A stretch of DNA of 17,365 nucleotides from Candidatus Bathyarchaeia archaeon. GTDB taxonomy: Archaea; Thermoproteota; Bathyarchaeia; Bathyarchaeales; Bathycorpusculaceae. The notes under the pieces are model-generated. The model did not search any database, had not been told where the DNA came from, and was given only the letters and a program-made list of their open reading frames with translations. Positions 1,134 to 17,042 of the stretch are shown here, one piece after another; the stretch's first letter is position 1, and every line of letters begins with the position of its first letter. The position numbers were made by a program, and so were the translations under genes. The DNA lies in NCBI GenBank assembly GCA_049970895.1, contig JBMFMB010000022.1, forward strand, positions 1 to 17,365, written 5' to 3'.

Positions 1134-1136
1134 AAC

Positions 1137-1529: not shown

Positions 1530-1700
1530 CTAGCCTAATACTTGAATTATAAGCCTCTTTTTAGTCTAACTTACACTTTTTTGTCTATTTCCGCGAAAAT
1601 AGAAAGGAGTTCTTTTCACTGGAAAATTAAAGCTCAAAAAGGTTTCAGACGGCACATATAGCTCTACATATATACGTGGATAATGCGGGCATATTAAGAA

Positions 1701-1708
1701 TATATAAA
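1701..1708 (+). promoter_or_regulatory. Putative TATA box of the cdv operon
   Basis: TATATAAA preceded by purine-rich AAGAA, about 30 nt upstream of SD GGAGG at 1737-1741. Confidence 0.55.
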
Positions 1709-1749
1709 GATTTGCCAAGCCCCTAAAGCCTCTCTTGGAGGAATCAAGC

Positions 1750-2412: not shown

Positions 2413-2433
2413 AAATAGATTGGAGGAATGCGC

Positions 2434-3153: not shown

Positions 3154-3183
3154 ACTTCTGCGTAGCGGGCGGAGGGAGCCAAA

Positions 3184-4086
3184 ATAAAAAACCCTTTCAC
3201 CCAAACCCCTCCACCACTACGAGAAGTTATAATCAAGTCTGTGCATAAACTTCGCATTCAACAACACAAAGTGGTTCAAGCATCGCTGAGACTTAAGGAG
3301 AGAGACAAAAGCCTATTCCAAACCTGTGTAACAGCACTGAGAGCCAACAACAGGGAAAGGGCTGCAATATGCGCAAATGAGCTGGCTGAAGTCCGCAAAC
3401 TAATCAATTTTCTCCAGCAGGTGGAGCTTGCTATTGAAAGGGTTATCCTCCGCCTCGAAACAGTGAAGGAGCTAAGCGACATAGTCATAGACCTAAAACC
3501 AGCACTTAGGACTCTCCAAAGTGTCTCCAAACAATTGTTTGATGTCCTACCAGAAGTTTCTTCGGAACTTAGCGAAATTAACGACGTCATAGGAGAAACA
3601 ATCTATTCCACAAAGATATCAGCAGACGAGGCCATAATTCCGGTTGACAGACTCACGCCAGCAGGAGAGCAAATTCTGAAGGAAGTTTCAAGCTTCCTGG
3701 AGAAGAGAATTGCCGAGAAGCTTCCTGAACCGCCCGCTATGCAGGAGACACCACCAGTAAAGCTTGAGCCTGCACAAGCCCAAATTAAGCAGATGGTTGC
3801 TTTAGCGGCTTCATGCTCCCAGTCTGTGGGCAGCGAGACTGTTGAGGCTGAAAAGGGAAGCTCCCAGAATCTAATTTCATTCCGAAAAGCCGAAATTCAT
3901 GAAATTTCGCTTCACGTTGGGAAGCCAACCCTTGAGGACACCCTCCTGGAATATGTTCGGAAAAGTGGAGGCGAAATAGACTTGACGCGTTGTTCTCGGG
4001 ATTTGGGCGTCTCATATGAGGATATTGAGAAGGCCCTTCAAAGTCTTGGGGCTAAGGGTAAGATAAAGATTGAAGCTAGAAGGTGA
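3184..4086 (+). CDS. cdvB: ESCRT-III cell division protein CdvB with C-terminal winged-helix domain
   Basis: Snf7 core (RAAICANELAEVRKL...IERVILRLETVKEL), MIM2-like LPEPP, and a C-terminal wH (LLEYVRKSGGEIDLTRCSRDLGVSYEDIEKALQSL). The ORF track starts at GTG 3241; ATA 3184 is proposed here (see findings). Confidence 0.9.
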   Translation: MKNPFTQTPPPLREVIIKSVHKLRIQQHKVVQASLRLKERDKSLFQTCVTALRANNRERAAICANELAEVRKLINFLQQVELAIERVILRLETVKELSDIVIDLKPALRTLQSVSKQLFDVLPEVSSELSEINDVIGETIYSTKISADEAIIPVDRLTPAGEQILKEVSSFLEKRIAEKLPEPPAMQETPPVKLEPAQAQIKQMVALAASCSQSVGSETVEAEKGSSQNLISFRKAEIHEISLHVGKPTLEDTLLEYVRKSGGEIDLTRCSRDLGVSYEDIEKALQSLGAKGKIKIEARR

Positions 4087-4093
4087 TTTTGTC

Positions 4094-5260
4094 ATGGAAG
4101 CATCGCAAGAGCTTGAAAGGTCTGCCACAAACTATGCGCTGGAGGCTGTTCGCCTCGACAAGCAAGGTGCAAGAGGCATGGCTATAACCATGTACCAAAA
4201 GGCCATAGAAACCCTGCTGAAGCTTGTCCAGTTATACCCAGACTACAGCCTAAACAAGGTTTACATCCAAAGAGCCATAGCCTACCAAGAAAGAATAAAG
4301 GTGCTACAAGGAGCCGTTGGGCCAGCAGAGCTTCAAGCTGAGGCTAAAGGCGTTGAAGGTGCAAAAACAGGCGAGGAAAAGAAAGCCAGCTATGAAGACT
4401 TGATTGTTAAGGAAAAGCCAAATGTGAAATGGGACGAGGTTATAGGGCTTGATACTGCAAAGAAGGCCATAAAAGAGGCCATAATTTACCCAGTTCAGAG
4501 GCCAGACTTGTTCCCGCTCGGATGGCCTAGGGGCATACTCCTATTTGGGCCGCCGGGATGCGGCAAAACGCTGTTGGCTGCTGCCGCCGCAACGGAAATC
4601 GACGCTGTTTTCATTTCTGTTGATGCCGCTTCAATAATGTCTAAGTGGTTGGGTGAGGCTGAGCAGAATGTTGCCCGCCTTTTTGAGTCTGCCAGAAAAT
4701 CCGCCTTGGAGGATAAGAAGCCAGCCATAATCTTCATTGACGAGCTGGACTCTCTGATGGGCAAGCACTCCAACGAGGTTGGCGGCGAAGTCCGAGTGCG
4801 AAACCAGTTCTTGAAGGAGATGGATGGCATAATAGACAAGGGCAAAAATATCCACGTATACGTCATAGGAGCCACAAACAAGCCTTGGGACTTAGACTGG
4901 CCCTTCATTAGACGTTTCCAAAAACGCATCCTCGTACCACTTCCAGACCATCACGCTCGCTTAATGATGTTTAAGCATTATACAAGCAACTTGCTTTTGG
5001 CGCCTGACGTGGACTTGCACGAGTTGGCTAGGCTTTCTGAGGGCTTTTCTGGAAGCGACATTAAAGATGTCTGCCAAGCAGCCCACTTAAAGGTTATAGG
5101 GGAATTCTTCGAGTCCGGTCAAGCAGCAAACAGGCTTGCCAAGCCTAGACCCTTACGCATGAGCGATTTTAGGCAGATTCTTGAAGAACGAAAGCCAAGT
5201 GTCTCCCTTGACATGCTAGCCTTGTATAACAGGTGGTTTGAAGCCTTTAAAGCCCTATAG
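4094..5260 (+). CDS. cdvC: CdvC/Vps4 AAA+ ATPase with N-terminal MIT domain
   Basis: MIT domain (ALEAVRLDKQG...YQKAIETL), Walker A GPPGCGKT, pore loop SKWLGEAE, Walker B IIFIDELD, SRH ATNKPWDLD...RRF. SD AGGTGA 4081-4086 overlaps the cdvB stop and favours ATG 4094. Confidence 0.96.
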   Translation: MEASQELERSATNYALEAVRLDKQGARGMAITMYQKAIETLLKLVQLYPDYSLNKVYIQRAIAYQERIKVLQGAVGPAELQAEAKGVEGAKTGEEKKASYEDLIVKEKPNVKWDEVIGLDTAKKAIKEAIIYPVQRPDLFPLGWPRGILLFGPPGCGKTLLAAAAATEIDAVFISVDAASIMSKWLGEAEQNVARLFESARKSALEDKKPAIIFIDELDSLMGKHSNEVGGEVRVRNQFLKEMDGIIDKGKNIHVYVIGATNKPWDLDWPFIRRFQKRILVPLPDHHARLMMFKHYTSNLLLAPDVDLHELARLSEGFSGSDIKDVCQAAHLKVIGEFFESGQAANRLAKPRPLRMSDFRQILEERKPSVSLDMLALYNRWFEAFKAL

Positions 5261-5386
5261 GAGCGCCCGTAAAGTGGATAGGTTTGGAGAAATCCTCTTC
5301 TATATTTTGAAAGCCTCTCCTTTCTCCCTTCTCCCCCTCGGAATCTCCAAACCCCACAATTAACTTGGGCGCTCTGTAAAGGGGCT
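5251..5386. repeat. Long imperfect inverted repeat (hairpin) between convergent cdvC and mobB
   Basis: Nested arms: GAGCGCCC 5261-5268 with GGGCGCTC 5367-5374; GTGG 5274-5277 with CCAC 5354-5357; GGTTTGGAGA 5281-5290 with TCTCCAAACC 5344-5353; outer AGCCC 5251-5255 with GGGCT 5382-5386. The loop contains a pure pyrimidine tract at 5314-5339. Confidence 0.8.
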
Positions 5387-5392
5387 ACTGCT

Positions 5393-5941
5393 TCAAAAAC
5401 CTCTTTTTTCCCTTATAATTTTTTCCACAAGCTCAGTAAGTTCAGCCGACTCCCTAAAAACATCAAAATATGGGGCTGGCAAGTCTTTTCCCATCACCGG
5501 ATAGGGACCCGTAAAGGCTATTATTGGCTTGAAGGTTTTTAGAGCTTCAGCAACATCCTCTCTGGATTTTACAGCCACTATTTTTGGTACGTCTGGGTTT
5601 TCGCCTAAAAGTTTTCTAAAACCTTCAATTAGGATTATGTCGCTGTTTTGGCACTTTTCCACTATGCCTTCAACGGTCAAGTTGCTTATTTCACCTTTCT
5701 CTATTATGGCTGTTTCTTTTGGTGATATGCTAACTATTGTTTTGGCTCCGGCTTCTGCAAATCTCCATGTGTCCTTACCCTTCGTGTCTATTGTGAAGTC
5801 TTCTTCTGGGATGTGTTTTACGGCTGCCACTTTATAGCCTCGGCGGGTTAGCTCCCTTGTTAGGGCTTCTATTGTTGTTGTTTTTCCAGACTCTTTGCTT
5901 CCCAAGACGGCTATTATTGTGGCTATGGCTTTGTTTTTCAA
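5393..5941 (-). CDS. mobB: Molybdopterin-guanine dinucleotide biosynthesis protein B
   Basis: P-loop GSKESGKTT, KVAAVKH, GKDTWRFAEAGA and DIILIEGFR are MobB hallmarks. TTG start with SD AGGTG. Confidence 0.92.
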   Translation of the reverse strand: MKNKAIATIIAVLGSKESGKTTTIEALTRELTRRGYKVAAVKHIPEEDFTIDTKGKDTWRFAEAGAKTIVSISPKETAIIEKGEISNLTVEGIVEKCQNSDIILIEGFRKLLGENPDVPKIVAVKSREDVAEALKTFKPIIAFTGPYPVMGKDLPAPYFDVFRESAELTELVEKIIREKRGF

Positions 5942-5952
5942 TTTTGCACCTT

Positions 5953-6423
5953 CTAGCCTTCCATCTCTTCGCTGAAGATTCTCTTAAAGGTGGCCTTATC
6001 CATATGGAGCTTTTCCGAGAGGTTTTTAATCCATTTTATGTAGCTCCTAAAAATGTTCTGTGATATTTCTGCCTTTTCCTCGTTTGAAAGCTCTTTCTCC
6101 TCCGCCAATAGGAGGGCAAACCATTTGCCAGCATCCGAAAGAGTATAAGCCTTAACCCAAACTATGCGTCCATTATGTTGCTTTTTTTCCATACCCTCTG
6201 TTAAGATTCCAAGCTTTGTCAAAACTTTCAAGTTCTCAATTACCGTCTTGTTTGAGTATTGGAGCCCTCTAACAAGATCTTTTTGGTAAACCTTGTTTGA
6301 AATCCCCATTTTAAGGAAGTATCTTAAAATGTCGAGGGAAGCCTTAGAGCCGAAAATTGCGCTTAGTATACGGTCTTTTTCCTCAGCTGGAAGGAAAACT
6401 ACATAGGGATGTAGTGAACTCAT
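5953..6423 (-). CDS. Winged-helix HTH putative transcriptional regulator (ArsR/MarR-like)
   Basis: HTH-like YQKDLVRGLQYSNKTVIENLKVLTKLGIL followed by a wing (VWVKAYTLSDAGK). Ends 11 bp before mobB. ATG 6423 preferred over 6441. Confidence 0.75.
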   Translation of the reverse strand: MSSLHPYVVFLPAEEKDRILSAIFGSKASLDILRYFLKMGISNKVYQKDLVRGLQYSNKTVIENLKVLTKLGILTEGMEKKQHNGRIVWVKAYTLSDAGKWFALLLAEEKELSNEEKAEISQNIFRSYIKWIKNLSEKLHMDKATFKRIFSEEMEG

Positions 6424-6518
6424 CTGTCCAAAGCACCACAAAAAGTCTTCTGCTATTCCTTAATATTGCTTTCTCAAAACGTCAACACTTTTAAAATAGT
6501 CAGCCAAATTCTATCAAG

Positions 6519-7556
6519 GTGTCCTTGACGACTGCGCCTAAAAACTGGCTTCCAATGGACGGAGACACATTCGCCACCAGCGAAGGCTTCATCCTAAACG
6601 TTTTTGGCTATGAGCATCCGGAAAAACGGGTAATAGCCTTTTTAAAGTACATACCATCAGGGTTCAAGGAACTCTTCAATGTGCGCCTTTTGGAGAGGAC
6701 GTGGCGTTATGGGCGCATTGAACTTTTTAGAGCTGAAAAGCTTTATACGGCGAAAAACTACCAAACCTTCCTACAAGTTTTTAGGAAAAACTTCCCAGAT
6801 TATGTTTATTACTGTCCCTTCAGAGGGAAGGATGTTATCAGCGCACCCTTGGCAAAGGTTAGGCGAGTGTATGTTCCAAAAGAATGTCTTCAAAGGCTTT
6901 TGAGGATGAAGAGGCTGGACAAACTGCAGAGGATGACCCTTGATTTTGTGAATTTGGTTTCCAGTGCTTCGAATGTCGCCCTTGAAGATTTTGGTGTTCA
7001 CGGCTCCATAGCCCTAAACATGCACTCCCAAGAGTCTGACATTGACGTTGTTGTTTATGGTAGCCGAAACTTCCGCAAAGTGGAAAAGGCTATTGACAAG
7101 CTTGTTGAAGAGGGAACCCTAAGCTATGTTTTCAATAACCGTTTGGATGCCGCGAGACGGTTTAAGGGGCGATTCCGCGGCAAAATTTTCATGTATAATG
7201 CTGTCCGCAAACCAGAAGAGGTTACAACCAAGTATGGCGAGCACTATTACAAGCCAATAGCCCCAGTTAAATTCCAATGCAGGGTTAAGGATGACTGTGA
7301 AGCCATGTTCCGCCCAGCCATATACAAAATAGAAGACTTTACACCACTAAACCAAAACTCAAGGCTTCCAAGAGAAATGGTTCCAGAGGCTGTTGTCTCC
7401 ATGATTGGATGCTACAGAAACATCGCCAAAAACGGGCAAAAAATAGAGGTTGCCGGTATGCTGGAACGCGTGGAAAAAGTTGGAACTGGAGAAGTCTTCT
7501 ACCAAGTTGTTGTTGGAACAGCTGGAAGCGAGGAAGAGTACATTTGGCCAGTTTAA
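6519..7556 (+). CDS. Predicted Pol-beta-superfamily nucleotidyltransferase (COG1665-like), paralog 1
   Basis: N-terminal domain (DGDTFATSEGFILNVFGYEHP), NTase signature GVHGS...SDIDVVVYG, and an OB-fold-like C-terminus (IEVAGMLERV). Confidence 0.8.
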   Translation: MSLTTAPKNWLPMDGDTFATSEGFILNVFGYEHPEKRVIAFLKYIPSGFKELFNVRLLERTWRYGRIELFRAEKLYTAKNYQTFLQVFRKNFPDYVYYCPFRGKDVISAPLAKVRRVYVPKECLQRLLRMKRLDKLQRMTLDFVNLVSSASNVALEDFGVHGSIALNMHSQESDIDVVVYGSRNFRKVEKAIDKLVEEGTLSYVFNNRLDAARRFKGRFRGKIFMYNAVRKPEEVTTKYGEHYYKPIAPVKFQCRVKDDCEAMFRPAIYKIEDFTPLNQNSRLPREMVPEAVVSMIGCYRNIAKNGQKIEVAGMLERVEKVGTGEVFYQVVVGTAGSEEEYIWPV

Positions 7557-8626
7557 GGCTTAGGGACCGCGACGCAATAATAACGAGGGAAGGACTAATT
7601 TTCCGAGTTTTTGGCTACACCCACCCACCAGAAGCCTATATATGTGATGCTGAGTACGCGCCATCCAACCTTTTCAAATCCTCAAACCCAAAAGCCTACA
7701 GAACAGACGGAGAAAAAGTCTTTTATAAGTTTTATGAGGATGAGGGCTGGCGCTTTATCGAGGCAAATTTTCCACAATACATGATTCTCTACGAGCCTAT
7801 TGGCAGAAAAGTTGTCGGCGTAAGGCACTCTGATGTGGCAGGTGTCAGAAAGCCAGAGGAAGCCCTAAAGGGGCTACTTGAAAAGGAACCAAAAGACGAG
7901 CTTTTAAAAGCTTTTCAAATAGTTTTCGATGCGACTGTTGCATGTTCTGGCTTGTCAATGGAGGATTTCGGCGTTTTTGGTTCACTTCTCCAAGGCTTTT
8001 ACCATCCAAAATTCTCTGACATAGACATAATTGTTTATGGTGGAAGAAATTTGGAGCAGATACGCGAAATTCTCCAGGAACTTTACATGGATAAAGGTTC
8101 AGGGTTTTCCAACGAGTTTGAGGACGACTCGCCCATTAGGGGGAAAGCTTGGCACTTCAAAAACATGAGCCCAAAAGAGTTTATATGGCACCAGAAACGC
8201 AAAATCATCTACGGCGTTTTTCATGACGAAGCCTCTAAAAGGGATATTAAAGTTGAGTTTGAGCCAGTGAAGGGCTGGAGCGAAATAAGCAACGAATACA
8301 GTCAGATTAAAAGGATAACCCGTGAAGGCTGGATTAAGGCTTACCTTCGCATAAAGGATGATTTAGAGGCGCCCTTCATGCCTTCAAATTATCATGTTGA
8401 AGTCGTCAAAATTGTTGAAGGTTTAAGGGTTGAGGACTTGAGGAGGGTTGTCTCATATCTTGAGGAGTTTAGGATGCAAGCATGGAAAGGCGAAACAGTT
8501 TATGCGGAAGGAAACCTTGAAAAGGTTGAAACAAAAAACGGCGAAAGCTTCCACCAAATAACATTAACCTATGGACCACGCTATTACGAGCAAGTTTTGA
8601 AGGTTGCGGAGCCAAAAGCCAGTTAA
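7544..8626 (+). CDS. Predicted nucleotidyltransferase (COG1665-like), paralog 2
   Basis: DRDAIITREGLIFRVFGYTHP; GVFGS...SDIDIIVYG; VYAEGNLEKV. Alignment to paralogs 1 and 3 points to a start at TTG 7544, overlapping the end of paralog 1, rather than 7409. Confidence 0.8.
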   Translation: MASLRLRDRDAIITREGLIFRVFGYTHPPEAYICDAEYAPSNLFKSSNPKAYRTDGEKVFYKFYEDEGWRFIEANFPQYMILYEPIGRKVVGVRHSDVAGVRKPEEALKGLLEKEPKDELLKAFQIVFDATVACSGLSMEDFGVFGSLLQGFYHPKFSDIDIIVYGGRNLEQIREILQELYMDKGSGFSNEFEDDSPIRGKAWHFKNMSPKEFIWHQKRKIIYGVFHDEASKRDIKVEFEPVKGWSEISNEYSQIKRITREGWIKAYLRIKDDLEAPFMPSNYHVEVVKIVEGLRVEDLRRVVSYLEEFRMQAWKGETVYAEGNLEKVETKNGESFHQITLTYGPRYYEQVLKVAEPKAS

Positions 8627-9648
8627 CGCTTTAGAATCATGTAGTCTGTTGGCTTGTTTCCAAGAAGTAGCCTAAAATACTCCCCGCCACTTCTATGGTC
8701 TGCCACGTGCTCAATTTTTCCCTGCGCCACAACCGTCTCACCTTTCCTCGCTTGTTCGCAGAATCTTCCACGGAAGGAGGTTATCTCCCTTATTGGCTCC
8801 AATTTCGGTCCTTCAACAATTTTCACGTCTTCAATTTTGTATGTGCATGGCGTGAAGATGGCTTCAGAATCATCAACAACAACCGCTTCAACTTTCGCAT
8901 AGCCACAATTCCTATAATGGACATCACCATAATTTTCGCTTACTTCGTCATAATCCTTCACAAAACGTATGAAATAATCCCTATCCATAAACTTGCCCTG
9001 AAAAACCTTCCTAAATTCGATTTTCACGAAGTCTTCGAAGCTCATAAAGGTGTCTTTCGAACGGAATGCGAAAAGTCTCCTCAAATCCGCCAAACCGTAA
9101 GGCTTAAAGGGCGTGTTGCCTTCCTTCAACAGTCTCTTTAAGGCTGAATGCACCTTATGGCAGTTTTCAACACCATAAACAACTGGGTCAATGTCCGAAA
9201 CCACCGTGTGCAAGCCCACCAAAACAGAGCCAGAAACTCCAAGACTGTTCCAAGGCACATCTGCCTCTTCCTTCAAAATCTTTAGGCATTGTAAAGCCGC
9301 CCTTTCCAAACCGTCAAGTTTTCCGTCTTTCCTCTTCCTTCGAAGCCTTTTCAAACCCTCAAGTGGACTGTAAACTTTCTTGATATTTTCTAATGGAACT
9401 TCGCAAAGCTTCTCGTCAAAAACCTGGTCGTGAACAATATAATTTGGAATGGCGCTTTCAAGAAAAGCAAACCTCTCAGAAAAGCCGTAAACCTTAACGT
9501 ACTTGACGCCTTTACGAATGCGAAAACCATTCTGGTCTGGAATAAAACGGGGAAAGGCTATTATCCTGTCTGGCGGGTGAACTAGCCCCTTAACGTCAAA
9601 GATTACGCCTTCAACAGACTCTAGCAAATATCCTTCTACTGGCCGCAT
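8623..9648 (-). CDS. Predicted nucleotidyltransferase (COG1665-like), paralog 3
   Basis: EGYLLESVEGVIFDVKGLVHPP; GVSGS...SDIDPVVYG; VVAQGKIEHV. Its stop shares TTAA 8623-8626 with convergent paralog 2. Confidence 0.8.
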   Translation of the reverse strand: MRPVEGYLLESVEGVIFDVKGLVHPPDRIIAFPRFIPDQNGFRIRKGVKYVKVYGFSERFAFLESAIPNYIVHDQVFDEKLCEVPLENIKKVYSPLEGLKRLRRKRKDGKLDGLERAALQCLKILKEEADVPWNSLGVSGSVLVGLHTVVSDIDPVVYGVENCHKVHSALKRLLKEGNTPFKPYGLADLRRLFAFRSKDTFMSFEDFVKIEFRKVFQGKFMDRDYFIRFVKDYDEVSENYGDVHYRNCGYAKVEAVVVDDSEAIFTPCTYKIEDVKIVEGPKLEPIREITSFRGRFCEQARKGETVVAQGKIEHVADHRSGGEYFRLLLGNKPTDYMILKR

Positions 9649-9671
9649 TTTTCTTATTTCGGCTTATTGAT

Positions 9672-10478
9672 TTATGTTTCCTCTATTATAGACTTTTCAG
9701 CTATAATCCACTCCGTGTTCTTTAGCGCTCTGATCAGTGGAACTGCGATTACTGTTGCGAATATAGCTTGAACAAGCCTTATAGCAGGGTAAATGAATGG
9801 GCTTACAAGAAAGTAAAAGCGGACAGCTTCTAAGGGGAGACCAAAGATGAATTCATAAACTACCGGTATGGCGAAAGCGTTGCATCCCCACATATTGTCC
9901 GCTTGGTTTCCAATAAAAGTCAGCAGGAAAAACAGTATGGGCATTCCTTTTGGGTTAGAGAGGCGTCTAGCAAATTTCGCGGTTGGATAAATTAGAAGAA
10001 GTGCAATCACTTTGTCCCAAAGCACAGCGACTGGCACGTGATAAATGGGTATCGTATAGGCGTTACCTGGATTGAATGGATCGAATATTTGGCTGTATCC
10101 CGTTATCGGTTGTGATGGCGGCGAAAAAAGAAAAGCCAAAATTAGTACCCCAAAAGCAATGAAAGCCCGCCGCCACTTTCTGTAAAAAATTAAGCCAACA
10201 ACTAAGGCGTTTATTGGAGGCGATAACAAGAAAGGGGCTCCGTAAGGGCTCATGCCTCCGGGAGGCAAAACCCATGATAAAAATGCCCCGAGAAATGCGG
10301 CGAAAGCACCTAGGTATGGACCTAAAATCAACCCGAAATCTGATGCGATTAACGCTTCGAGTTTTATTTTTAAGTCTGGGAGTCCTACCGCGGGAATGTA
10401 TGGCGTTATTATGGATAGGACGTAGTAAAGCGAGGCGAAAACCGCTACTAATGCTAGGTGACGCGTTAAAATTTTCAT
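9672..10478 (-). CDS. ECF-type transporter substrate-specific (S) component
   Basis: Multi-TM protein with LALVAVFASLYYVLS, the S-component-like GLILGPYLGAFAAFLG motif, and a C-terminal RLVQAIFATVIAVPL. Ends 23 bp before paralog 3. Confidence 0.75.
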   Translation of the reverse strand: MKILTRHLALVAVFASLYYVLSIITPYIPAVGLPDLKIKLEALIASDFGLILGPYLGAFAAFLGAFLSWVLPPGGMSPYGAPFLLSPPINALVVGLIFYRKWRRAFIAFGVLILAFLFSPPSQPITGYSQIFDPFNPGNAYTIPIYHVPVAVLWDKVIALLLIYPTAKFARRLSNPKGMPILFFLLTFIGNQADNMWGCNAFAIPVVYEFIFGLPLEAVRFYFLVSPFIYPAIRLVQAIFATVIAVPLIRALKNTEWIIAEKSIIEET

Positions 10479-10511
10479 GGAATAGACATCCTATGTACTC
10501 TTGGTAATCGC

Positions 10512-10529
10512 TGTGTAATTTTTTACACA
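10512..10529. promoter_or_regulatory. Palindromic putative operator in the divergent S-component/citG promoter region
   Basis: TGTGTAA-tttt-TTACACA, a perfect 7-4-7 inverted repeat just upstream of TATA-like TTAATAA. Confidence 0.5.
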
Positions 10530-10571
10530 ACGTTAATAAGCTTTTCCGCGCAGATTTTACTGTAAGGTGCA

Positions 10572-11528
10572 ATGTTAATGGCTTTGGCTTTCAACAAGGC
10601 TGAGCATGTTTCACGGTGCTTGGAGCTGGCCATTCTTTTGGAGGTTAGCGCCGACAAGCCTGGAAACGTCAACTTGGTTGTTGGTTTTGAGGGCACAAAT
10701 TACATGCATTTTTTGGCTTCTGCTGTAGCTGCTGCTCCCCATTTTAAGCTGGCTGCTGAGAGGGGTGTAGCTGCTGCGAAAGGTGAAATAGGCTTAGAAG
10801 ACATTGGTGTTGGAAGGATTATCCGCGACTGTATAGCCGACATAAACGCTTGGCAGAGTGGCGGAAACACCCTACTCGGCACAATAATACTCTTTACGCC
10901 TTTGGCTGTCGCTGCTGGCATGACAAAGGATGAAAAGGGGATTTTCAACCTTTCCGTTTTGAGGCAGAATCTGAAAAAGGTTGTTGAGGCGACAACACCA
11001 GAAGACGCGGTTGCAGTTTACGAGGCTATCGGGATTGCCAAGCCCAGCGGTTTGGGAAAAGCTCCCGACCTAGACGTTAACGACCCAAGCTCTGTGAAAC
11101 GCATAGTTGAGGAGAGGATTTCGCTATATCAAGTTTTTAAAATAGCCGCCTCCTATGATATGATTTGCTCAGAATGGGTTAACAATTACCAAGTAACCTT
11201 CGAATACGCCTACCCGATGCTGGTGCAAAACCTTAAAGAAGACGGAGACCTAAACACGGCAATAATCCACACTTTCCTTGCTGTTTTGGCTAAGCATCCA
11301 GACACTTTCATCGCAAGAAAAGTTGGACTTGAAAGGGCTCGCGAAGTCTCAGCTGTAGCAGAAAAAGTCCTGAAAAGCGGTGGTCTTAGGACAGCTACTG
11401 GAAGGGAAAAACTCAGAGAGTTTGACGCCATGCTTAGGAAGGAGGGTAACCTCCTCAATCCTGGAACAACGGCAGACATTATTGCCGCTGCTCTTGCATT
11501 GGCTGTTTTGGGCGGCTACAGACCATAA
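10572..11528 (+). CDS. citG: CitG/MdcB-family protein (triphosphoribosyl-dephospho-CoA synthase-like, archaeal type)
   Basis: LEVSADKPGNV, NTLLGTIILF, PDTFIARK and NPGTTADIIAA are characteristic CitG motifs. The start may be ATG 10578 (SD AGGTG 10565-10569). Confidence 0.88.
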   Translation: MLMALAFNKAEHVSRCLELAILLEVSADKPGNVNLVVGFEGTNYMHFLASAVAAAPHFKLAAERGVAAAKGEIGLEDIGVGRIIRDCIADINAWQSGGNTLLGTIILFTPLAVAAGMTKDEKGIFNLSVLRQNLKKVVEATTPEDAVAVYEAIGIAKPSGLGKAPDLDVNDPSSVKRIVEERISLYQVFKIAASYDMICSEWVNNYQVTFEYAYPMLVQNLKEDGDLNTAIIHTFLAVLAKHPDTFIARKVGLERAREVSAVAEKVLKSGGLRTATGREKLREFDAMLRKEGNLLNPGTTADIIAAALALAVLGGYRP

Positions 11529-11661
11529 AACAGAAAACTATAGGGGGATAGGCTGCTATTGGCTTTTCAGCCTCTAAAAGGGATAAATTAATTAGGATTA
11601 AAATTTCTGTATGTAGCTTTCAAGGGATGTTGAGCGTTTAATTGGCAAGTGTTGAGGTTGA

Positions 11662-12072
11662 ATGATGGAAGAGAAGCCTAAGCTGAAAGTCACCTTGCTG
11701 ACAGGGCGCACAATAGAGCAGGGCGCCGGGAAAGAGCGGGGCAAATCCTCAAAAGAGTATGTGGAAAGCGTCTCAGTCTGTTTTATGGACCCAGAAGATA
11801 TGAAGAAGCTAGGCGTAAAGGATGGAACAAACGTTCAGGTTTCAACGGCTTTCGGCTCAGTGGTGGTTAAAGCCAAAAAATCTTTGAGGGCACCACACCA
11901 AGGCGTAATATTCATCCCATATGGTCTTTGGGCAAACGTTGTTGTAGATCCTGAAACCCACGGAATTGGTATGCCATCCCTCAAGGGGATTCCAGCCACT
12001 GTGGAGCCAGCCTCAGACAAGCCTGTTCTAGGCTTAGAGGAACTCCTAAAAACAGTTTTTAGGAAGGGTTAA
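11662..12072 (+). CDS. fwdD: Formylmethanofuran dehydrogenase subunit D
   Basis: LLTGRTIEQG, FIPYGLWANVVV and GMPSLKGIPA; molybdopterin dinucleotide-binding domain; first gene of DBAC. Confidence 0.93.
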   Translation: MMEEKPKLKVTLLTGRTIEQGAGKERGKSSKEYVESVSVCFMDPEDMKKLGVKDGTNVQVSTAFGSVVVKAKKSLRAPHQGVIFIPYGLWANVVVDPETHGIGMPSLKGIPATVEPASDKPVLGLEELLKTVFRKG

Positions 12073-13538
12073 TGATGCCAGTTGTCAAAGCCGTGACGTG
12101 TCCAGTTTGTGGAAGCCTATGCGACGACATAGAACTAACCATTGAAGATGGGCGCATTGTTAAGGTTAAGAATGGCTGTGCCATGTGTGAAGCCAAGTTT
12201 TTGGGCTACTGCGGCGAACACCGCGTTTTAAAGCCTATGATAAGGAAGAATGGCGAGCTTGTCAAAACAACCCTTAAAGAGGCTATTAGAAGGGCTGCTG
12301 AAATTTTGGCTGAAGCCAACTATCCAGTTCTTTACGGCTGGAGCAGCACAAGCTGCGAAGCCATAAGCGTTGGCATAGAACTAGCAGAAGAGGTTGGCGG
12401 AGTAATAGACAATACGTCGGTGGTCTGCCACGGACCATCAATTCTAAGCATCCAAGACGTTGGAATTCCATCATGCACTCTGGGGCAAATTAGGCATAGA
12501 GCCGACCTAATCGTTTATTGGGGAAGCAACCCATGGAGCGCCCATCCAAGGCACATAGAACGCTACACAGCCTTCTCGGAAGGAAGGTTTGAGAAAAGCG
12601 CATGGAGAAGCTACGTGAACAAGGTTAAGGCTTTGGTTGGAAGGAAAAAGGTTCAAAGCGCCATTAAAAGGCTATTCTTCAAAAAGCCACCGCCAGCCCC
12701 GCCACCTGTCTCCGAGTATAAGCCCTACCCATCTATAGCAAAGGAAGGGAGAAAACTTATAGTGATTGATGTTAGGCGAACAAAGTCGGCTGAAATTGCA
12801 GACTATTTCGTGCAGGTCGAGCCAAACAAGGACTATGAGCTTCTTCAGGCTTTTAGGGCTTTGATACGCGACCAAGAGCTTGAAGTTGACAAGGTGGCTG
12901 GAGTCGCAGTAGAGTATTTGGAGGAGGTTGCAGATGCCATGGTAAGCTGTGACTTCGGCGCATTGTTTTTTGGGCTTGGCTTAACTATGAGCAGCGGCAA
13001 ACTCCGAAACGTCGACGCCGCACTTTCACTGGTGCGGGACCTAAACATGCGCACAAAGTTTGTCATAATGCCCATGCGGGGACACTTCAACGTGACTGGC
13101 GCTAATACGGTTTTCACTTGGCAGACGGGCTACCCCTATGCTGTTGATTTTTCGCTTGGCTATCCAAGATACAATCCTGGCGAGACATCTGTTGTTGATG
13201 TTTTGCTGCGGAAGGAGTCAGACGCCGCCCTAATAGTGGCTTCAGACCCGGTTTCAAACTTCCCTCGTAAGGCGGCTGAACACTTAGTGGAAAACCCATT
13301 AGTTGTTATTGACCCCCACATGAATGTGACAGCCCAAATGGCTGACGTGCTCATCCCATCAGCTTTTGTTGGCATAGAGGCTTCTGGAACAGCCTACAGA
13401 ATGGACCACGTGCCAATACCACTAAAAAAAGTTGTTGACCCGCCCAGAGGGATACTCCCAGACGAGGAGATTCTTAGGCGAATCCTAGCCGAAGTTAGGA
13501 AAATAAAAAAGAGTGAAGCAAAGAAGGAGGAAGCCTAA
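12072..13538 (+). CDS. fwdB: Formylmethanofuran dehydrogenase subunit B (Mo/W-pterin subunit, Cys ligand)
   Basis: CPVCGSLCDD...C [4Fe-4S] motif, VCHGP metal ligand, AHPRH, PMRGHFNV, GTAYRMD. Confidence 0.96.
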   Translation: MMPVVKAVTCPVCGSLCDDIELTIEDGRIVKVKNGCAMCEAKFLGYCGEHRVLKPMIRKNGELVKTTLKEAIRRAAEILAEANYPVLYGWSSTSCEAISVGIELAEEVGGVIDNTSVVCHGPSILSIQDVGIPSCTLGQIRHRADLIVYWGSNPWSAHPRHIERYTAFSEGRFEKSAWRSYVNKVKALVGRKKVQSAIKRLFFKKPPPAPPPVSEYKPYPSIAKEGRKLIVIDVRRTKSAEIADYFVQVEPNKDYELLQAFRALIRDQELEVDKVAGVAVEYLEEVADAMVSCDFGALFFGLGLTMSSGKLRNVDAALSLVRDLNMRTKFVIMPMRGHFNVTGANTVFTWQTGYPYAVDFSLGYPRYNPGETSVVDVLLRKESDAALIVASDPVSNFPRKAAEHLVENPLVVIDPHMNVTAQMADVLIPSAFVGIEASGTAYRMDHVPIPLKKVVDPPRGILPDEEILRRILAEVRKIKKSEAKKEEA

Positions 13539-15229
13539 TGGAACTCCTAATTAGGAACGGCTTTGTCTACGACCCAATTAACGGGATTAACGGAGAGAAG
13601 ATGGATATAGCCGTCAAAGATGGCAAGATAGTTGAGAAGGTCAACGAGCGCCGTGCCAAGAAGATAGACGCCACAGGAATGGTTGTCATGCCCGGCGGGG
13701 TTGATATCCACAGCCACATAGCAGGAGGCAAAGTGAACTCCGGTAGGCTTCTGCGTCCAGAAGACCACTATAAGGATTTTGAACGTAAAACAGCAGTGAC
13801 AAGGTCTGGTGTGGGCTATTCCATCCCATCCACTTTTACAACCGGCTATCGTTATGCGAGGATGGGTTGGACAACAGTTATGGACCCTGCCATGCCGCCC
13901 TTGGAGGCTAAGCACACGCATGAAGAGTTAAGCGACACTCCTATAATTGATAAAGCTAGTTATCCGCTTCTCGGCGACTGGTGGTTTGTCCTAGAATACT
14001 TGGGGGACGGCAGAGTAGAGGAGTGCGCCCGCCACGTGGCATGGATGATTAAGGCGACTAAGGGCTATGCCATAAAGCTTGTAAACCCAGGCGGGCTTGA
14101 GGCTTGGGGCTTCGGGCGTAATGTAAGAAATCTAGACGACCAAGTCCCATACTTTGGAATTACACCCCGCGAAATCATCCGAGGACTATGCAAGGTTAAT
14201 AAGCTCCTAAACCTGCCTCACACGATTCATGTGCACACCAACAATTTGGGGAAACCCGGCAATTACATTACAGCCCTAGAAACAATGAGGTGTGTCGAGG
14301 ATTTAGCCCAAGACGACAAGCCAGTAATTCACATAACACATTGCCAGTTCAGCGCCTTTAAGGGCGACGACTGGAGAACCCTCGAGTCTGGGGCTGAAGA
14401 AATAGCCAACTACGTTAATGCGCATTCTCACGTGACCATGGATATGGGGCAGGTGATATTCACGGACACAACAACAATGACGGCTGACGGACCCTTCCAG
14501 TACATACTCTACACCTTAAGCGGAAACAAGTGGGTAAACCATGACGTGGAAACAGAAACCAGCGCTGGCATAGTGCCCTTCCACTACAAAAGGAAGAGCT
14601 ATGTGCACGCAACCCAATGGTCTATTGGGCTGGAACTAGCCCTACTAATCAAGGACCCGTGGAAAATCTTGATGACCACGGACCATCCGAACGGCGGACC
14701 ATTTATTGCTTATCCGAGGATTGTGGCTTGGCTCATGAGCAGAAAAGCAAGAGAAGCCACGCTTAAGAAGATTAATCCGAAAGCGAGGAGCAGAAGCCTT
14801 CTCCCAACAATAGATCGTGAATTGGGCTTTTATGAAATAGCTATAGTGACGAGGGCTGGACAAGCCAAAGCCTTAGGACTTAAAAATAAGGGGCACCTGG
14901 GTGTTGGCGCGGACGCTGACATAGCCATATACAATTTCAACCCTGAAACAATGGACCCATCGAAGAAGTATAAGGCTGTTAGGAGGGCTTTCAAGAGGGC
15001 AGCCTACACCATTAAAGGCGGGCAAGTGGTGGCTAAGGACGGCGAAGTCCTAAAGCATATTGAAGGGGCAACCATGTGGTTGAATGTGCAAACCAGCGAG
15101 GAGGCGAAAATAACAGAGGAAATGAAAAAACGGTTTAAGGAGTATTGGACCGTTGAGTTTGAGAATTACCCCGTAAGTGAGGATTATTTGGCAATTTCCC
15201 AACCCATAACCGTGAAGGCTGATGTGTAA
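13538..15229 (+). CDS. fwdA: Formylmethanofuran dehydrogenase subunit A (amidohydrolase)
   Basis: DIHSHIAG, IKLVNPGG, HVHTNNLG, HITHCQF, TTMTADGP, TTDHPNGGPF; 563 aa. Confidence 0.97.
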   Translation: MELLIRNGFVYDPINGINGEKMDIAVKDGKIVEKVNERRAKKIDATGMVVMPGGVDIHSHIAGGKVNSGRLLRPEDHYKDFERKTAVTRSGVGYSIPSTFTTGYRYARMGWTTVMDPAMPPLEAKHTHEELSDTPIIDKASYPLLGDWWFVLEYLGDGRVEECARHVAWMIKATKGYAIKLVNPGGLEAWGFGRNVRNLDDQVPYFGITPREIIRGLCKVNKLLNLPHTIHVHTNNLGKPGNYITALETMRCVEDLAQDDKPVIHITHCQFSAFKGDDWRTLESGAEEIANYVNAHSHVTMDMGQVIFTDTTTMTADGPFQYILYTLSGNKWVNHDVETETSAGIVPFHYKRKSYVHATQWSIGLELALLIKDPWKILMTTDHPNGGPFIAYPRIVAWLMSRKAREATLKKINPKARSRSLLPTIDRELGFYEIAIVTRAGQAKALGLKNKGHLGVGADADIAIYNFNPETMDPSKKYKAVRRAFKRAAYTIKGGQVVAKDGEVLKHIEGATMWLNVQTSEEAKITEEMKKRFKEYWTVEFENYPVSEDYLAISQPITVKADV

Positions 15230-16056
15230 TGATTGTGAACCTATACCCCGTAAAAGAGTTTAGACTGCCAATAATTGCTGAATGCATAAACCCAGACATC
15301 TTCCAAGACAAAAAACTTAGGGAAATTGAAAAGCTGGAGGTTTGGGAAGGGAACAAACGGAAAAGCCTCGGAGAACTCTTTAAGGTCGAAGTGGCAGAGG
15401 CAGAAGGCACTCCGGAAGCCACTGTCATAGCTATTCATGGCGATGTGAGCCGTGTTAGGCGGATAGGCGCCGGAATGAGAAGCGGCGAAATCATAGTTAA
15501 GGGGGATGCTGGCATGCACTTGGGCGAAGAAATGCGGGGCGGAAAAATAACAGTATACGGCAACGTGTTGGGCTGGGCTGGTTCCATGATGAGGGGCGGA
15601 ACAATAGAAATTCACGGGAATGCTGGCGACTATTTGGGTGCTCCATACCGTGGAAGCACAGAAGGCATGAATGGTGGAAAAATAATTGTGCATGGAAATA
15701 TTGGAAATGAAGCCGGAGCCCACATGAGGAAAGGCTTGATAAAAGTTTATGGAAACGCTGGACAGTTTGTAGGCTTCAGGATGCACGGCGGAACAATTTA
15801 TGTGCAGAAAAACTGTGGCGGAAGGGCTGGAGCATGCATGACGGATGGAACAATAGTTGTTGGAGGCTTCTTGGAGTCTGTCCTCCCAACATTCACAATT
15901 GAGGGCATGCGAAAGAAGGTTAAAATTGAGGAGGGCGAAGTTGTTGATGCACCCTTCTATCTTTTCCTCGGAGACTTAACAGAAAACGGTAAGGGAAGGC
16001 TTTACGTGGCTAAGGAGCCCAACCCCCACCTAAGCCACTATGAAAAGCTTCTCTAA
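15229..16056 (+). CDS. fwdC: Formylmethanofuran dehydrogenase subunit C
   Basis: AECINPD, LGELFKV and repeated GxxMxGGxIxVxGN beta-helix units. Confidence 0.96.
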   Translation: MIVNLYPVKEFRLPIIAECINPDIFQDKKLREIEKLEVWEGNKRKSLGELFKVEVAEAEGTPEATVIAIHGDVSRVRRIGAGMRSGEIIVKGDAGMHLGEEMRGGKITVYGNVLGWAGSMMRGGTIEIHGNAGDYLGAPYRGSTEGMNGGKIIVHGNIGNEAGAHMRKGLIKVYGNAGQFVGFRMHGGTIYVQKNCGGRAGACMTDGTIVVGGFLESVLPTFTIEGMRKKVKIEEGEVVDAPFYLFLGDLTENGKGRLYVAKEPNPHLSHYEKLL

Positions 16057-16076
16057 AAATAGTGGAGAGTAAGCCG

Positions 16077-17042
16077 ATGAATGGCGGTTTAAGCGTAAAC
16101 CGGTTTGCATGGAAACTACTGGAAAAGCTCTGTGGAAACCCCGAATATTATGGCGTGAAGGTTGAAAGGGCAGAATGTGGAGCTACAATTGTTGATGCTG
16201 GAATAAACGCGAAGGGCGGCTTTCAAGCCGGCAAAGTTATAACAGAAATTTGTATGGGTGGATGTGGAAAAGTCGTTATAGGCTTTAGGCAGTACGGCGA
16301 GCATGAGCTTCCAACAATATTTGTTTACACAGACCACCCTGCCATAGCCACTTTAGGCTCACAGTTTGCAGGCTGGAACATTAAGGAGGGCGAATACTTC
16401 GCCATAGGCTCAGGACCGGCAAGAGCCCTAGCCCAAAAACCAAAGGAAATCTATGAAAAGATTGGCTATAGGGACGAGTTTAACAAAGCTGTAGTGGTCT
16501 TAGAAACAGAAAAAGTGCCGCCGGAAAAGCTTATGAAGCGTTTGGCTGAAGACTGCCAGGTCCAATGCGAAAACTTGGCAATAATACTGACTCCAACAGC
16601 AAGCCTAGCCGGAGCAACACAAGTAGCCGGAAGAATAGTTGAAACCGGAATCCACAAACTCACAAAGTTAGGCTTTAATCCAAACGCCATCCTATATGCT
16701 TGGGGATGCGCCCCCATACCGCCAACCCACCCAAAATTTGTTAAAGCCATGGCACGGACAAACGACGCCATCCTATATGGAGGTGTAACCCAGTATATAG
16801 TCGATTATGAAAATGAGGATGAACTAGCAAAAATAGTTGAGAAAGCCCCGTCAAAAGCCTCAAAAGATTATGGCAAACCCTTCATGGAAATTTTCAAGGC
16901 TGCAAACTGCGACTTCTACAAAATAGACCCAAACATATTCGCACCAGCAAAAATAACAATAAACAATATAAGAACTGGAAAAACTTTTACGGCTGGAAAG
17001 ATTAACCTCGAGGCTTTGGAAAAATCCTTCGAACTAACTTAG
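16077..17042 (+). CDS. mch: Methenyltetrahydromethanopterin cyclohydrolase
   Basis: LSVN, IVDAG, LGSQFAGW, GSGPARALA, QVAGRIVETGIHK, TNDAILYGG, DFYKIDPNIFAPA. ATG 16077 preferred to GTG 16062. Confidence 0.96.
   Translation: MNGGLSVNRFAWKLLEKLCGNPEYYGVKVERAECGATIVDAGINAKGGFQAGKVITEICMGGCGKVVIGFRQYGEHELPTIFVYTDHPAIATLGSQFAGWNIKEGEYFAIGSGPARALAQKPKEIYEKIGYRDEFNKAVVVLETEKVPPEKLMKRLAEDCQVQCENLAIILTPTASLAGATQVAGRIVETGIHKLTKLGFNPNAILYAWGCAPIPPTHPKFVKAMARTNDAILYGGVTQYIVDYENEDELAKIVEKAPSKASKDYGKPFMEIFKAANCDFYKIDPNIFAPAKITINNIRTGKTFTAGKINLEALEKSFELT

Follow-up and report, generated by a model that had tools for sequence, protein, structure and literature searches.

Candidate methanopterin tail-assembly and salvage genes beside fwdDBAC-mch in a Bathyarchaeia genome

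Gene content of the locus

A 17,365-nucleotide stretch of Candidatus Bathyarchaeia archaeon DNA (the window; assembly GCA_049970895.1, contig JBMFMB010000022.1, positions 1 to 17,365) contains three related Pol-beta-type nucleotidyltransferase (NTase) genes (NT1 to NT3), an ECF S-component-like membrane protein gene, and a CitG-family gene directly upstream of fwdDBAC-mch (Table 1). The presence of these five genes, as described in the initial annotation, is confirmed, and the arrangement is not chance. Of 80 related loci, 76 have NT1 and NT2 adjacent, 51 have the order NT3-S-component-CitG, and 41 have CitG next to fwdD, although many loci are cut by contig ends and nearly all come from Bathyarchaeia.

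Table 1. Coordinates of the module and its flanking genes within the window
Position	Strand	Gene	Assignment
5953..6441	-	HTH	Small winged-helix protein, weakly Lrs14-like; probable regulator
6519..7556	+	NT1	Pol-beta-type NTase, clade A
7544..8626	+	NT2	Pol-beta-type NTase, clade C; likely TTG start
8623..9648	-	NT3	NTase, clade D
9672..10478	-		ECF-type S-component-like membrane protein
10572..11528	+	CitG	Archaeal CitG-family protein
11662..17042	+	fwdD, fwdB, fwdA, fwdC and mch	Context genes that use methanofuran and H4MPT

NT1 and NT2 both match Pfam NTP_transf_2 (4.9e-5, 24.1 bits against a cut-off of 21, and 1.2e-5, 26 bits, respectively). NT2 was originally listed with an ATG start at 7409, but its first ∼45 residues overlap NT1 and are not conserved, and the likely start overlaps the NT1 stop by 13 nt, as in orthologues. 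NT3 has no Pfam hit but aligns over its full length with NT1 and NT2 at 29 to 30% identity, with invariant G-V-x-G-S and S-D-I-D-x-x-V-Y-G motifs (GVHGS and SDIDVVVYG in NT1), and the genome holds only these three copies. In a quick tree, clade A is sister to clade B, clade C has an SH-aLRT of 100, and homologues adjacent to CitG fall in clade D with NT3. The AlphaFold model of NT3 (pLDDT 97.2, pTM 0.93) predicts an N-terminal beta domain, an NTase core, and a C-terminal OB-like barrel, with no whole-chain PDB match.

The S-component-like gene lies 23 nt upstream of NT3 on the same strand, so cotranscription is plausible. Its product matches Pfam ECF-ribofla_trS (3.7e-7, 30.7 bits against a cut-off of 26.7) over the N-terminal 100 residues only and scores 34.7 bits, below the cut-off of 60, with the folate family model TIGR04518. 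The 10 best Foldseek PDB rows for its predicted structure (pLDDT 81.8) are all ECF S-components (BioY, FolT, and RibU), although the best E value is 4.8e-3 and none reaches 1e-3. An EcfT is encoded elsewhere in the genome.

The CitG-family protein matches Pfam CitG at full length (3.3e-73, positions 2 to 283 of 284) and PDB 3h9p, a putative synthase (4.8e-18). It is not an equivalog of bacterial CitG or MdcB, as the NCBIfam equivalog models score only 34 to 51 bits against cut-offs of 272 to 477, and only over the C-terminal ∼100 residues. No citrate-lyase acyl carrier protein (ACP), CitX, or MdcG was found anywhere in the 97%-complete genome. The gene lies 133 nt upstream of fwdD, and the context genes match Pfam Molydop_binding, Molybdopterin, Amidohydro_3, GXGXG (31.6 bits, just under the cut-off of 32.5), and MCH (3.7e-127).

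The small winged-helix protein has only weak family matches (NCBIfam Lrs14, E 6e-4, far below cut-off; Pfam HTH_27, E 0.015) but is a conserved companion of the module, with a homologue in 66 of the 80 related loci and in 52 of the 55 that hold CitG. In two Asgard loci the homologous N terminus is fused to a PfkB-family kinase of 477 aa. The core of the cluster (NTases, S-component, CitG, and HTH) survives rearrangement, also in a Thermofilaceae and a Promethearchaeota record.

Distribution and neighborhoods of CitG and the NTases

The NTase family follows H4MPT-related genes. Of 301 Thermoproteota genomes, 139 carry both the NTase and Mch or RFAP synthase (MptG), 4 the NTase only, 13 a marker only, and 145 neither. 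The corresponding values are 139, 2, 13, and 147 for CitG against Mch or MptG, and 133 (both), 8 (CitG only), 10 (NTase only), and 150 (neither) for CitG against the NTase. Related genomes are not independent, so these tallies overstate significance, and the MptG count uses E ≤ 1e-10, with only 87 of the 109 hits passing the curated cut-off. Among 30 itemized families, a hand count from the per-family tallies gives 20 with both NTase and a marker, 1 with NTase only, 1 with a marker only, and 8 with neither. Within-family splits agree: in one family (f25) 12 of 18 genomes carry each of CitG, NTase, and MptG, and in another (f29) 1 of 10 carries each of all four genes, a single genome being listed in all four searches. 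In an Asgard sample of 111 genomes, NTase against Mch or MptG gives 71, 2, 8, and 30, and all 47 MptG-positive genomes have the NTase, although the profile is imperfect, with 17 CitG-only and 5 NTase-only genomes.

CitG and an NTase are direct neighbors in many families, including in Sulfolobaceae-like genomes G223 and G110 and in 11 other genomes (G278, G085, G093, G101, G120, G254, G033, G206, G248, G165, and G073). Other gene orders are DUF447-CitG-NTase in G085, CitG-DUF447 in G018, DUF1464-NTase-CitG in G223, and DUF447-MptG-MptH in G061. One Asgard genome (G340) has MptG-DUF1464-flavoprotein/Fer4-MptH-MptA-NTase-NTase on one strand with CitG 4 kb away, and two others (G331 and G341) have fwdDBAC-mch-RimK-CitG with an NTase pair, S-component, and HTH nearby. 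Among homologues of the query protein P0164, 17 protein clusters from several sources are ∼500-aa fusions of HPPK (PF01288) to an NTase, covering 97 to 100% of the query, and the six examined match NT3 best (8e-81 to 2e-88).

Proposed role in methanopterin-type cofactor biosynthesis

These observations suggest that the CitG-family gene and the three NTases belong to the biosynthesis of the methanopterin-type pterin cofactor, whose later biosynthetic enzymes are still unknown, and most likely to assembly of its anionic tail, a reading we favor with moderate confidence. By precedent, CitG apparently makes an alpha-linked 5-triphosphoribosyl adduct from ATP, MdcG/CitX-type transferases then likely displace PPi, and methanopterin appears to carry an alpha-ribofuranosyl-5-phosphate esterified to 2-hydroxyglutarate. 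We therefore propose that CitG uses ATP to place a 5-triphospho-alpha-D-ribosyl group on the terminal hydroxyl of the aminophenyl-ribitol, releasing adenine, and that an NT3-type NTase treats this product as an NTP analogue, transferring the phosphoribosyl-cofactor moiety to the hydroxyl of 2-hydroxyglutarate, releasing pyrophosphate and forming the phosphodiester. The NT1/NT2 pair would carry out a related but unassigned transfer. No enzyme assay exists for any of these proteins, and every chemical step and the transported substrate are inferred.

Other considerations weigh against this model. A CitG-type step would take the ribosyl group from ATP instead. Haloferax volcanii is positive for CitG, the MptG model, DUF447, and Mch, yet methanopterin-specific enzymes are reported to be absent from haloarchaea, with these homologues working with folate (PMC8305020). 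The only hint that the NTase family extends to classical methanogens, which were not tested here, is an ESM-Atlas look-alike cluster whose commonest phylum is Methanobacteriota.

The genome lacks MptG, MptH, DUF447, and DUF1464 but keeps CitG, the three NTases, a RimK ATP-grasp orthologue (1e-116), and EcfT, and the module probably acts on a pterin-arylamine core, or on a tail-less cofactor, imported with the help of the adjacent S-component. Consistent with this, 43 of 78 Mch-positive Thermoproteota genomes lack MptG, and MptH is also absent in 4 of 4 MptG-negative family members tested, two of them 100% complete, and present in the MptG-positive control G061. However, the MptG, MptH, and DUF447 genes are clustered in relatives, so for this one genome a single unassembled contig could hide them together. 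The S-component family is also not specific to this module, occurring in 14 of 17 and 19 of 25 genomes of two families (f16 and f18) that have none of the four other genes, and in de novo producers it flanks MptG-MptH, so it is not a marker of salvage.

The initial annotation, which had proposed triphosphoribosylation of the pterin ribitol by CitG, phosphodiester formation by the NTases, and import of a precursor or acceptor by the S-component, is partly supported. Three of its own four refutation tests, those of distribution, synteny, and the absence of an ACP, CitX, or MdcG from the genome, came out in its favor. The specific chemistry rests on analogy only. Its suggestion that three paralogs could mean alternative or extended tails has no support; these are ancient lineages that occur as fixed pairs.

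Alternative explanations and related systems

It is possible, although less likely, that CitG and the NTases act at a different step of methanopterin-type pterin biosynthesis, such as near the pterin-pyrophosphate/arylamine condensation, or in activation of another intermediate by nucleotidylation. The fusion partner HPPK makes 6-hydroxymethyl-dihydropterin pyrophosphate, the NTase pair in the Asgard operon directly follows the early-pathway genes MptH and MptA, and two to four active-looking paralogs are more than one phosphodiester needs. However, a fusion shows only a shared pathway, retention of CitG and the NTases in a genome lacking MptG and MptH is odd if they served the condensation step, and CitG chemistry seems to fit the alpha-ribosyl-phosphate of the tail and no other part of the molecule.

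A canonical-type prosthetic-group system, in which CitG makes 2'-(5''-triphosphoribosyl)-3'-dephospho-CoA and MdcG-like NTases attach it to an unrecognized carrier protein, is unlikely. The full-length Pfam CitG match and the likely Pol-beta-type nature of MdcG are compatible with it, and one relative gave a faint, nonsignificant MdcG hit (E 0.077), but no CitX, MdcG, or citrate-lyase/malonate-decarboxylase ACP is found in the genome, CitG is far below the equivalog cut-offs, and the tight link to MptG, MptH, MptA, DUF447, and HPPK is left unexplained.

RNA modification by the NTases, for example tRNA tailing or repair, with only an indirect link to CitG and C1 genes, is doubtful: the poly(A)-polymerase-like core plus OB-like barrel would suit an RNA substrate, and the only partial structural matches of the NT3 model are poly(A) polymerase or Cid1 cores and SSB/RPA/LysRS-type OB folds (all weak, best E 0.04), but the family was not found in whole families that lack H4MPT markers (f12, 0 of 43; f16, 0 of 17; f18, 0 of 25; f21, 0 of 20), unlike a general RNA enzyme, and is operonic with cofactor genes and fused to HPPK. 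A role in methanofuran biosynthesis, suggested by the position upstream of formylmethanofuran dehydrogenase genes and by the methylotroph RimK-type neighbor of mch and orf7 (Orf5/MyfB), which works on methylofuran and not on H4MPT (PMC8141765), is similarly improbable, as Ftr is found in 0 of 12 near-complete genomes with CitG, NTase, and MptG (the Bathyarchaeia genome itself has 2 copies), Sulfolobus acidocaldarius and H. volcanii have CitG but no Ftr, and methanofuran probably contains no ribose.

The CitG/CitX and MdcB/MdcG systems for citrate lyase and malonate decarboxylase similarly pair a CitG-family protein with a Pol-beta-type transferase and share the proposed two-step logic, but the NTases here have no CitX or MdcG Pfam match and carry the additional predicted N-terminal beta and C-terminal OB-like domains, and the proposed acceptors are small molecules, not a protein serine. 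The CitG homologue orf7 of methylotrophic bacteria is also placed beside mch, with the order mch-orf5-orf7 in Methylosinus trichosporium (PMC3615186) and mch, alpha-L-glutamate ligase, then triphosphoribosyl-dephospho-CoA synthase in Methylomonas DH-1 (PMC11533326), the same order as mch-RimK-CitG in the Asgard loci. Methylotrophs make dephospho-H4MPT, which lacks the phosphate and hydroxyglutarate (PMC8141765), and would therefore not need the NTase step. In coenzyme F420 biosynthesis by CofC/CofD a cofactor tail also appears to be joined through a phosphodiester by a nucleotidyl-activated intermediate, but the folds and families are unrelated and activation is by GMP rather than by a triphosphoribosyl group. 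The S-component-like protein resembles FolT, RibU, and BioY S-components in predicted fold and N-terminal sequence, although it is longer (268 aa against ∼165 to 190), and its family is widespread in archaea with and without H4MPT markers.

The nucleotidyltransferases and the CitG-family protein

The window is contig C22 of a 1.34-Mb, 97%-complete genome, and its gene order runs from a glutamine amidotransferase fragment through a Cdv cell-division cluster to fwdDBAC-mch. The longest open frame of NT2, the second of three nucleotidyltransferases (NT1 to NT3), starts at 7409, but the sequence and the orthologues point to a TTG start that overlaps the NT1 stop by 13 nt; the gene for a membrane protein resembling an ECF S-component ends 23 nt before NT3 on the same strand. 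No Rfam family or tRNA was found in the window, and a sigma-70-type promoter scan, which is not suited to archaea, was at shuffle level.

Coordinates of features in the window, elsewhere in the same genome, and in related loci (L) and sampled genomes (G); C denotes a contig
Feature	Location	Coordinates	Strand
Glutamine amidotransferase fragment	Window		
Cdv cluster (ESCRT-III, CdvA, ESCRT-III, Vps4)	Window	1735-5260	
MobB	Window	5393-5941	-
Small winged-helix (HTH) protein	Window	5953-6441	-
NT1	Window	6519-7556	+
NT2	Window	TTG start at 7544	+
NT3	Window	8623-9648	-
S-component-like membrane protein	Window	9672-10478	-
CitG-family protein	Window	10572-11528	+
fwdD, fwdB, fwdA, fwdC and mch	Window	11662-17042	+
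EcfT	Same genome, C1	107696-108313	
Second paralog of the S-component family	Same genome, C1	198155-198832	
Weak homologue of the protein with a partial TiaS TCKD domain	Same genome, C1	31852-33189	
Orthologue of the APH-like protein	Same genome, C5	36706-38484	
Winged-helix protein with partial TiaS TCKD domain	L094	12633-13754	-
HTH-PfkB fusion	L095	6098-7531	+
APH-like kinase-fold protein	L088	4593-6152	
APH-like kinase-fold protein	L090	8955-10604	
S-component gene in three pieces	L028	13149-13829	
S-component gene with in-frame stops	G288, C9	19936-20721	
S-component gene with in-frame stops	G266, C13	1849-2595	

The three nucleotidyltransferases are 29-30% identical over their whole length and share G-x-x-G-S, S-D-I-D-x-x-V-Y-G, and a C-terminal D-D-x-E-A-x-F-x-P-x-x-Y block. 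G137, G140, S141, D152, and D154 are invariant in 97 diverse family members, so all copies look catalytically competent, and the genome holds only these three. NT1 and NT2 score 24.1 and 26 bits against the Pfam NTP_transf_2 cut-off of 21, whereas NT3 has no hit, and no family-specific Pfam or NCBIfam model exists. None of the three matches MdcG or CitX at E<=0.01, although one relative gave an MdcG score of 13.4 bits (E 0.077) against a cut-off of 26.5. A profile search of 1.84 billion representatives found 1430 members at E<=1e-3 and 414 at E<=1e-30.

The structural model of NT3 is very confident (pLDDT 97.2, pTM 0.93) and shows a predicted N-terminal beta domain, the NTase core with a helical insert, and a C-terminal OB-like barrel. 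No solved structure matches the whole chain: of 488 Foldseek matches at E<=10 none reaches 1e-3, and the partial matches, all weak, are to poly(A) polymerase or Cid1 cores and to SSB/RPA/LysRS OB folds. A sequence search of NT3 against the PDB gave only spurious methionine aminopeptidase hits, and the family profile gave nothing below E 0.05.

A quick maximum-likelihood tree of 47 sequences gives four clades, in which A (NT1) is sister to B, and C (NT2) is sister to D (NT3). Clades A and C are starred, B and D have SH-aLRT values of 93-94, and the two deepest groupings have only 81. Adjacent gene pairs always combine one A/B member with one C/D member, as NT1-NT2 in Bathyarchaeia and a Thermofilaceae record, and as B-D pairs in the Promethearchaeota and Thermofilaceae records, in genomes G026, G018, and G085, and in loci L078 and L083. 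The paralogs are therefore ancient and pair-forming and are not recent duplicates.

The CitG-family protein is probably not the canonical triphosphoribosyl-dephospho-CoA synthase (EC 2.4.2.52). It matches the Pfam CitG domain over its full length (PF01874, 3.3e-73, profile positions 2-283 of 284), but the curated CitG and MdcB equivalog models match only the C-terminal ∼100 residues, with scores of 51 bits against 280 (NF002315), 44.9 against 272.3 (TIGR03125), 44.8 against 282.35 (TIGR03132), and 34 against 477 (NF007503). The citrate-lyase or malonate-decarboxylase ACP, CitX, and MdcG (PF06857, PF03802, and PF10620) give no match at E<=1 in the 97%-complete genome. Among 14 named control genomes, the CitG model has hits in Escherichia coli and in the archaea M. 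jannaschii, M. acetivorans, S. acidocaldarius, and H. volcanii.

Distribution and gene neighbourhoods

An evenly drawn sample of 301 Thermoproteota genomes was searched for four genes, with CitG found in 141 genomes, the NTase family in 143, Mch in 78, and the RFAP synthase MptG in 109 at E<=1e-10 (87 over the curated cut-off). Cross-tabulated as both/first only/second only/neither, CitG against NTase gives 133/8/10/150, CitG against (Mch or MptG) gives 139/2/13/147, and NTase against (Mch or MptG) gives 139/4/13/145. Whole families lack everything (f12, 0 of 43; f16, 0 of 17; f18, 0 of 25; f21, 0 of 20; f numbers denote families in the sample), while families without Mch but with MptG have CitG and the NTase (f20, 11 of 11; f27, 10 of 10). 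Related genomes are not independent, so these tables describe the pattern and are not a statistical test. Splits inside families agree: in f25, 12 of 18 genomes carry each of CitG, NTase, and MptG, and in f29, 1 of 10 carries each of all four, with genome G280 listed in all four searches.

A second sample of 111 genomes was drawn from the phylum of the Promethearchaeota locus, centered on the genome of that locus, with CitG in 85, NTase in 73, Mch in 72, and MptG in 47. Here NTase against (Mch or MptG) gives 71/2/8/30, and all 47 MptG-positive genomes carry the NTase. CitG against NTase gives 68/17/5/21, and several of the CitG-only genomes have weak CitG scores (1e-11 to 1e-17), although completeness of these genomes was not reported.

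Within Bathyarchaeia the block Cdv-MobB-HTH-NT1-NT2-NT3-S-component-CitG-fwdDBAC-mch is conserved. Of 80 related loci, recovered with an alignment of three sequences that returned almost only Bathyarchaeia (a 97-row alignment yielded no conserved stretch), 76 have NT1-NT2 adjacent, 51 have the order NT3-S-component-CitG, and 41 have CitG next to fwdD. The complete Cdv cluster, whose Vps4 has a MIT domain, is syntenic with the module in 56 of the 80. MobB (molybdopterin-guanine dinucleotide biosynthesis protein B) lies a few kb from the molybdo/tungstopterin-dependent fwdB, but this link is seen only inside the Bathyarchaeia synteny block. Rearranged loci, such as L072, L073, L075, L076, L078, the Thermofilaceae L082, and the Promethearchaeota L084, keep the NTases, S-component, CitG, and HTH together while the flanks change. 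One syntenic locus (L056, DASPPK010000072.1) is deposited as an Acidiferrales bacterium MAG and one NTase homologue (P0371) as an Acidobacteria bacterium MAG, and these are probably archaeal contigs binned into bacterial genomes.

The links outside Bathyarchaeia, which are in relatives and not in the window's own genome, are more telling. In two complete Sulfolobaceae-like genomes a full-length NTase lies 53-74 nt from CitG, in an apparent DUF1464-NTase-CitG operon; genome G085 has DUF447-CitG-NTase and G018 has CitG-DUF447, and DUF447 lies in turn beside MptG and MptH (DUF6513 + Pterin_bind + DUF4346) in G061. In Asgard genome G340, one strand reads MptG, DUF1464, a flavoprotein with a ferredoxin domain that may be DmrX-like, MptH, MptA-type GTP cyclohydrolase, NTase, NTase, with CitG 4 kb further on. 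A 373-aa protein with a winged helix and a partial TiaS TCKD domain (9.8e-14) sits two genes from this CitG, a 417-aa ORF lying between, and the window's genome has a weak homologue (2.8e-10). A ∼520-550-aa APH-like kinase-fold protein, one copy of which also shows a weak Pol-beta hit, lies convergent to the NTase pair in two different families, f20 and f25, and has an orthologue elsewhere in the window's genome.

In Asgard genomes G331 and G341 the order is fwdDBAC-mch-RimK ATP-grasp-CitG, with Mtd, a luciferase-like protein, an HTH-PfkB fusion, the S-component, and an NTase pair nearby. These two loci (L095 on G331:C6 and L096 on G341:C6) carry almost the same gene set as the window (NTase pair, S-component, HTH, fwdDBAC, mch, and CitG) with a very similar FwdA (phmmer 1e-266), which could mean transfer of the whole cluster between phyla or mis-binned contigs. 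The fusion, of 477 aa, joins the homologue of the window's small HTH protein to a PfkB-family carbohydrate kinase, hinting at a kinase step or a ligand-sensing regulator in the module. The mch-ATP-grasp-CitG order matches mch-orf5-orf7 of methylotrophs (PMC3615186, PMC11533326), and the presence of a CitG homologue in H4MPT-linked clusters of methylotrophs is already known.

Although a search for fused forms of 598 aa or more found none, the representative P0164 is an HPPK (PF01288, 3e-40) fused to an NTase, and 17 homologues are such ∼500-aa fusions covering 97-100% of the query, from JGI, NCBI, ENA, and Logan. The six fusions examined match NT3 (8e-81 to 2e-88) far better than NT1 or NT2; all six keep the G-x-x-G-S motif, and a DxD pattern matched four of them.

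A proposed role in methanopterin biosynthesis

The co-distribution with pterin genes, the CitG-NTase pairing, and the HPPK fusions make it likely that these genes belong to methanopterin-type pterin biosynthesis, although the profiles are imperfect, and the only lead to the NTase in classical methanogens is an Atlas cluster whose commonest phylum is Methanobacteriota. The haloarchaeal controls also count against this role, as they carry CitG, an MptG-like gene, DUF447, and Mch although they are reported to use folate (PMC8305020). The chemistry is inferred from what is probably the action of CitG and MdcG and from the structure of methanopterin. CitG would transfer the 5-triphosphoribosyl group of ATP, with inversion to the alpha anomer, onto the ribitol 5-hydroxyl, and an NT3-type NTase would then use this NTP-like product to esterify 2-hydroxyglutarate, releasing PPi. 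An alpha-riboside is the outcome expected from CitG chemistry and is not what an inverting PRPP transferase would give, but in the absence of biochemistry, and with what appears to be a PRPP assignment weighing against it, this mechanism is at best about as likely as not. It assigns no role to the second NTase lineage or to NT1/NT2.

An RNA substrate for the NTases cannot be excluded from the predicted fold but would not explain the distribution or the fusions. Clusters of this kind mix methanopterin and methanofuran genes, and the methylotroph Orf5 is a methylofuran glutamate ligase (PMC8141765), but Ftr was found in 0 of 12 near-complete genomes (families f27, f20, f25, and f13) that carry CitG, NTase, and MptG, and among the controls only in the two methanogens, which argues against a methanofuran-specific role; the window's genome has two copies.

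Methanopterin is the C1 carrier of methanogenesis, anaerobic methane and alkane oxidation, and the archaeal Wood-Ljungdahl pathway, and a 2011 inventory still listed "estimated 7 unknown proteins" for its synthesis (PMC3087415). We found no paper linking CitG or any nucleotidyltransferase with methanopterin biosynthesis, in a search that lacked most subscription journals, and as far as it shows, the NTase family as the conserved partner of CitG, its HPPK fusions, its paired-paralog structure, and the genotype that has the tail genes without the core genes appear new. The conserved, uncharacterized two-enzyme unit has a clear chemical precedent, which makes these steps directly testable with purified proteins, and the enzymes would also be candidate targets for inhibiting methanogens.

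Core pathway genes and possible import

The window's genome lacks recognizable core pathway genes: the best MptG hit is 25 bits against a cut-off of 113.5, and the MptH-type domain and DUF447 are absent. Phmmer searches with queries from relatives also find no MptG, MptH, DUF447, DUF1464, DmrX-like flavoprotein, MptA, Mtd, or luciferase-like protein, but do find a RimK orthologue (1e-116) and the APH-like protein. MptA (PF02649) is uninformative in this family, being absent from all five genomes tested, including the MptG-positive control. Fwd, two Ftr copies, and Mch are present, and the lack of Mtd and of a Mer-like luciferase-family protein in these single-query searches could mean that the C1 pathway is partial or that these genes are too divergent for the query. 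The lack of core genes is not a one-off, as 43 of 78 Mch-positive Thermoproteota genomes lack MptG, and MptH is absent from 4 of 4 MptG-negative family members tested, two of them 100% complete, and present in the MptG-positive control.

The organism may therefore obtain the pterin-arylamine core from outside, or it may have unrecognized replacements, and we regard salvage in this genome as possible but no better than an even prospect. A bolder and more doubtful reading is that the CitG-NTase pair are the long-missing archaeal enzymes that add the alpha-ribosyl-5-phosphate and 2-hydroxyglutarate tail of methanopterin, and that this Bathyarchaeia lineage, like the other Mch-positive genomes without MptG, is a methanopterin-core auxotroph that imports a tail-less pterin "vitamin" through an ECF S-component and rebuilds the charged tail inside the cell. 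This would be the first salvage route described for methanopterin and implies cross-feeding of a C1 cofactor in anaerobic communities. Genomes that keep the C1 enzymes and this module but lack the core genes would change how cofactor autonomy is read from Bathyarchaeia and other uncultured archaeal genomes.

The adjacent membrane protein matches an S-component family (PF07155, 30.7 bits against a cut-off of 26.7) over residues 4-105 only, and the folate-family model TIGR04518 is below cut-off (34.7 against 60). Its structural model (pLDDT 81.8) has BioY, FolT, and RibU as the ten best Foldseek PDB rows (probability 0.93-1.00), although the best E is 4.8e-3 and none reaches 1e-3. The genome also encodes EcfT (PF02361, 1.3e-34), and these observations are consistent with import. 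However, the S-component family is broad; it is found in 107 of 301 genomes, including f16 and f18, which lack all four other genes, and paralogs flank MptG-MptH in 13 de novo producers, at 1.1-2.4 kb. An apparent inverse relation between the S-component and MptG in family f1, read from gap sizes, was rejected, as an HMM showed a divergent S-component in nearly every NT3-CitG gap of the 80 loci. A second paralog of the family (E 2.3e-36) is encoded elsewhere in the window's genome. The S-component gene is in three pieces in locus L028 and has in-frame stops in two other genomes, so it may be decaying in some lineages.
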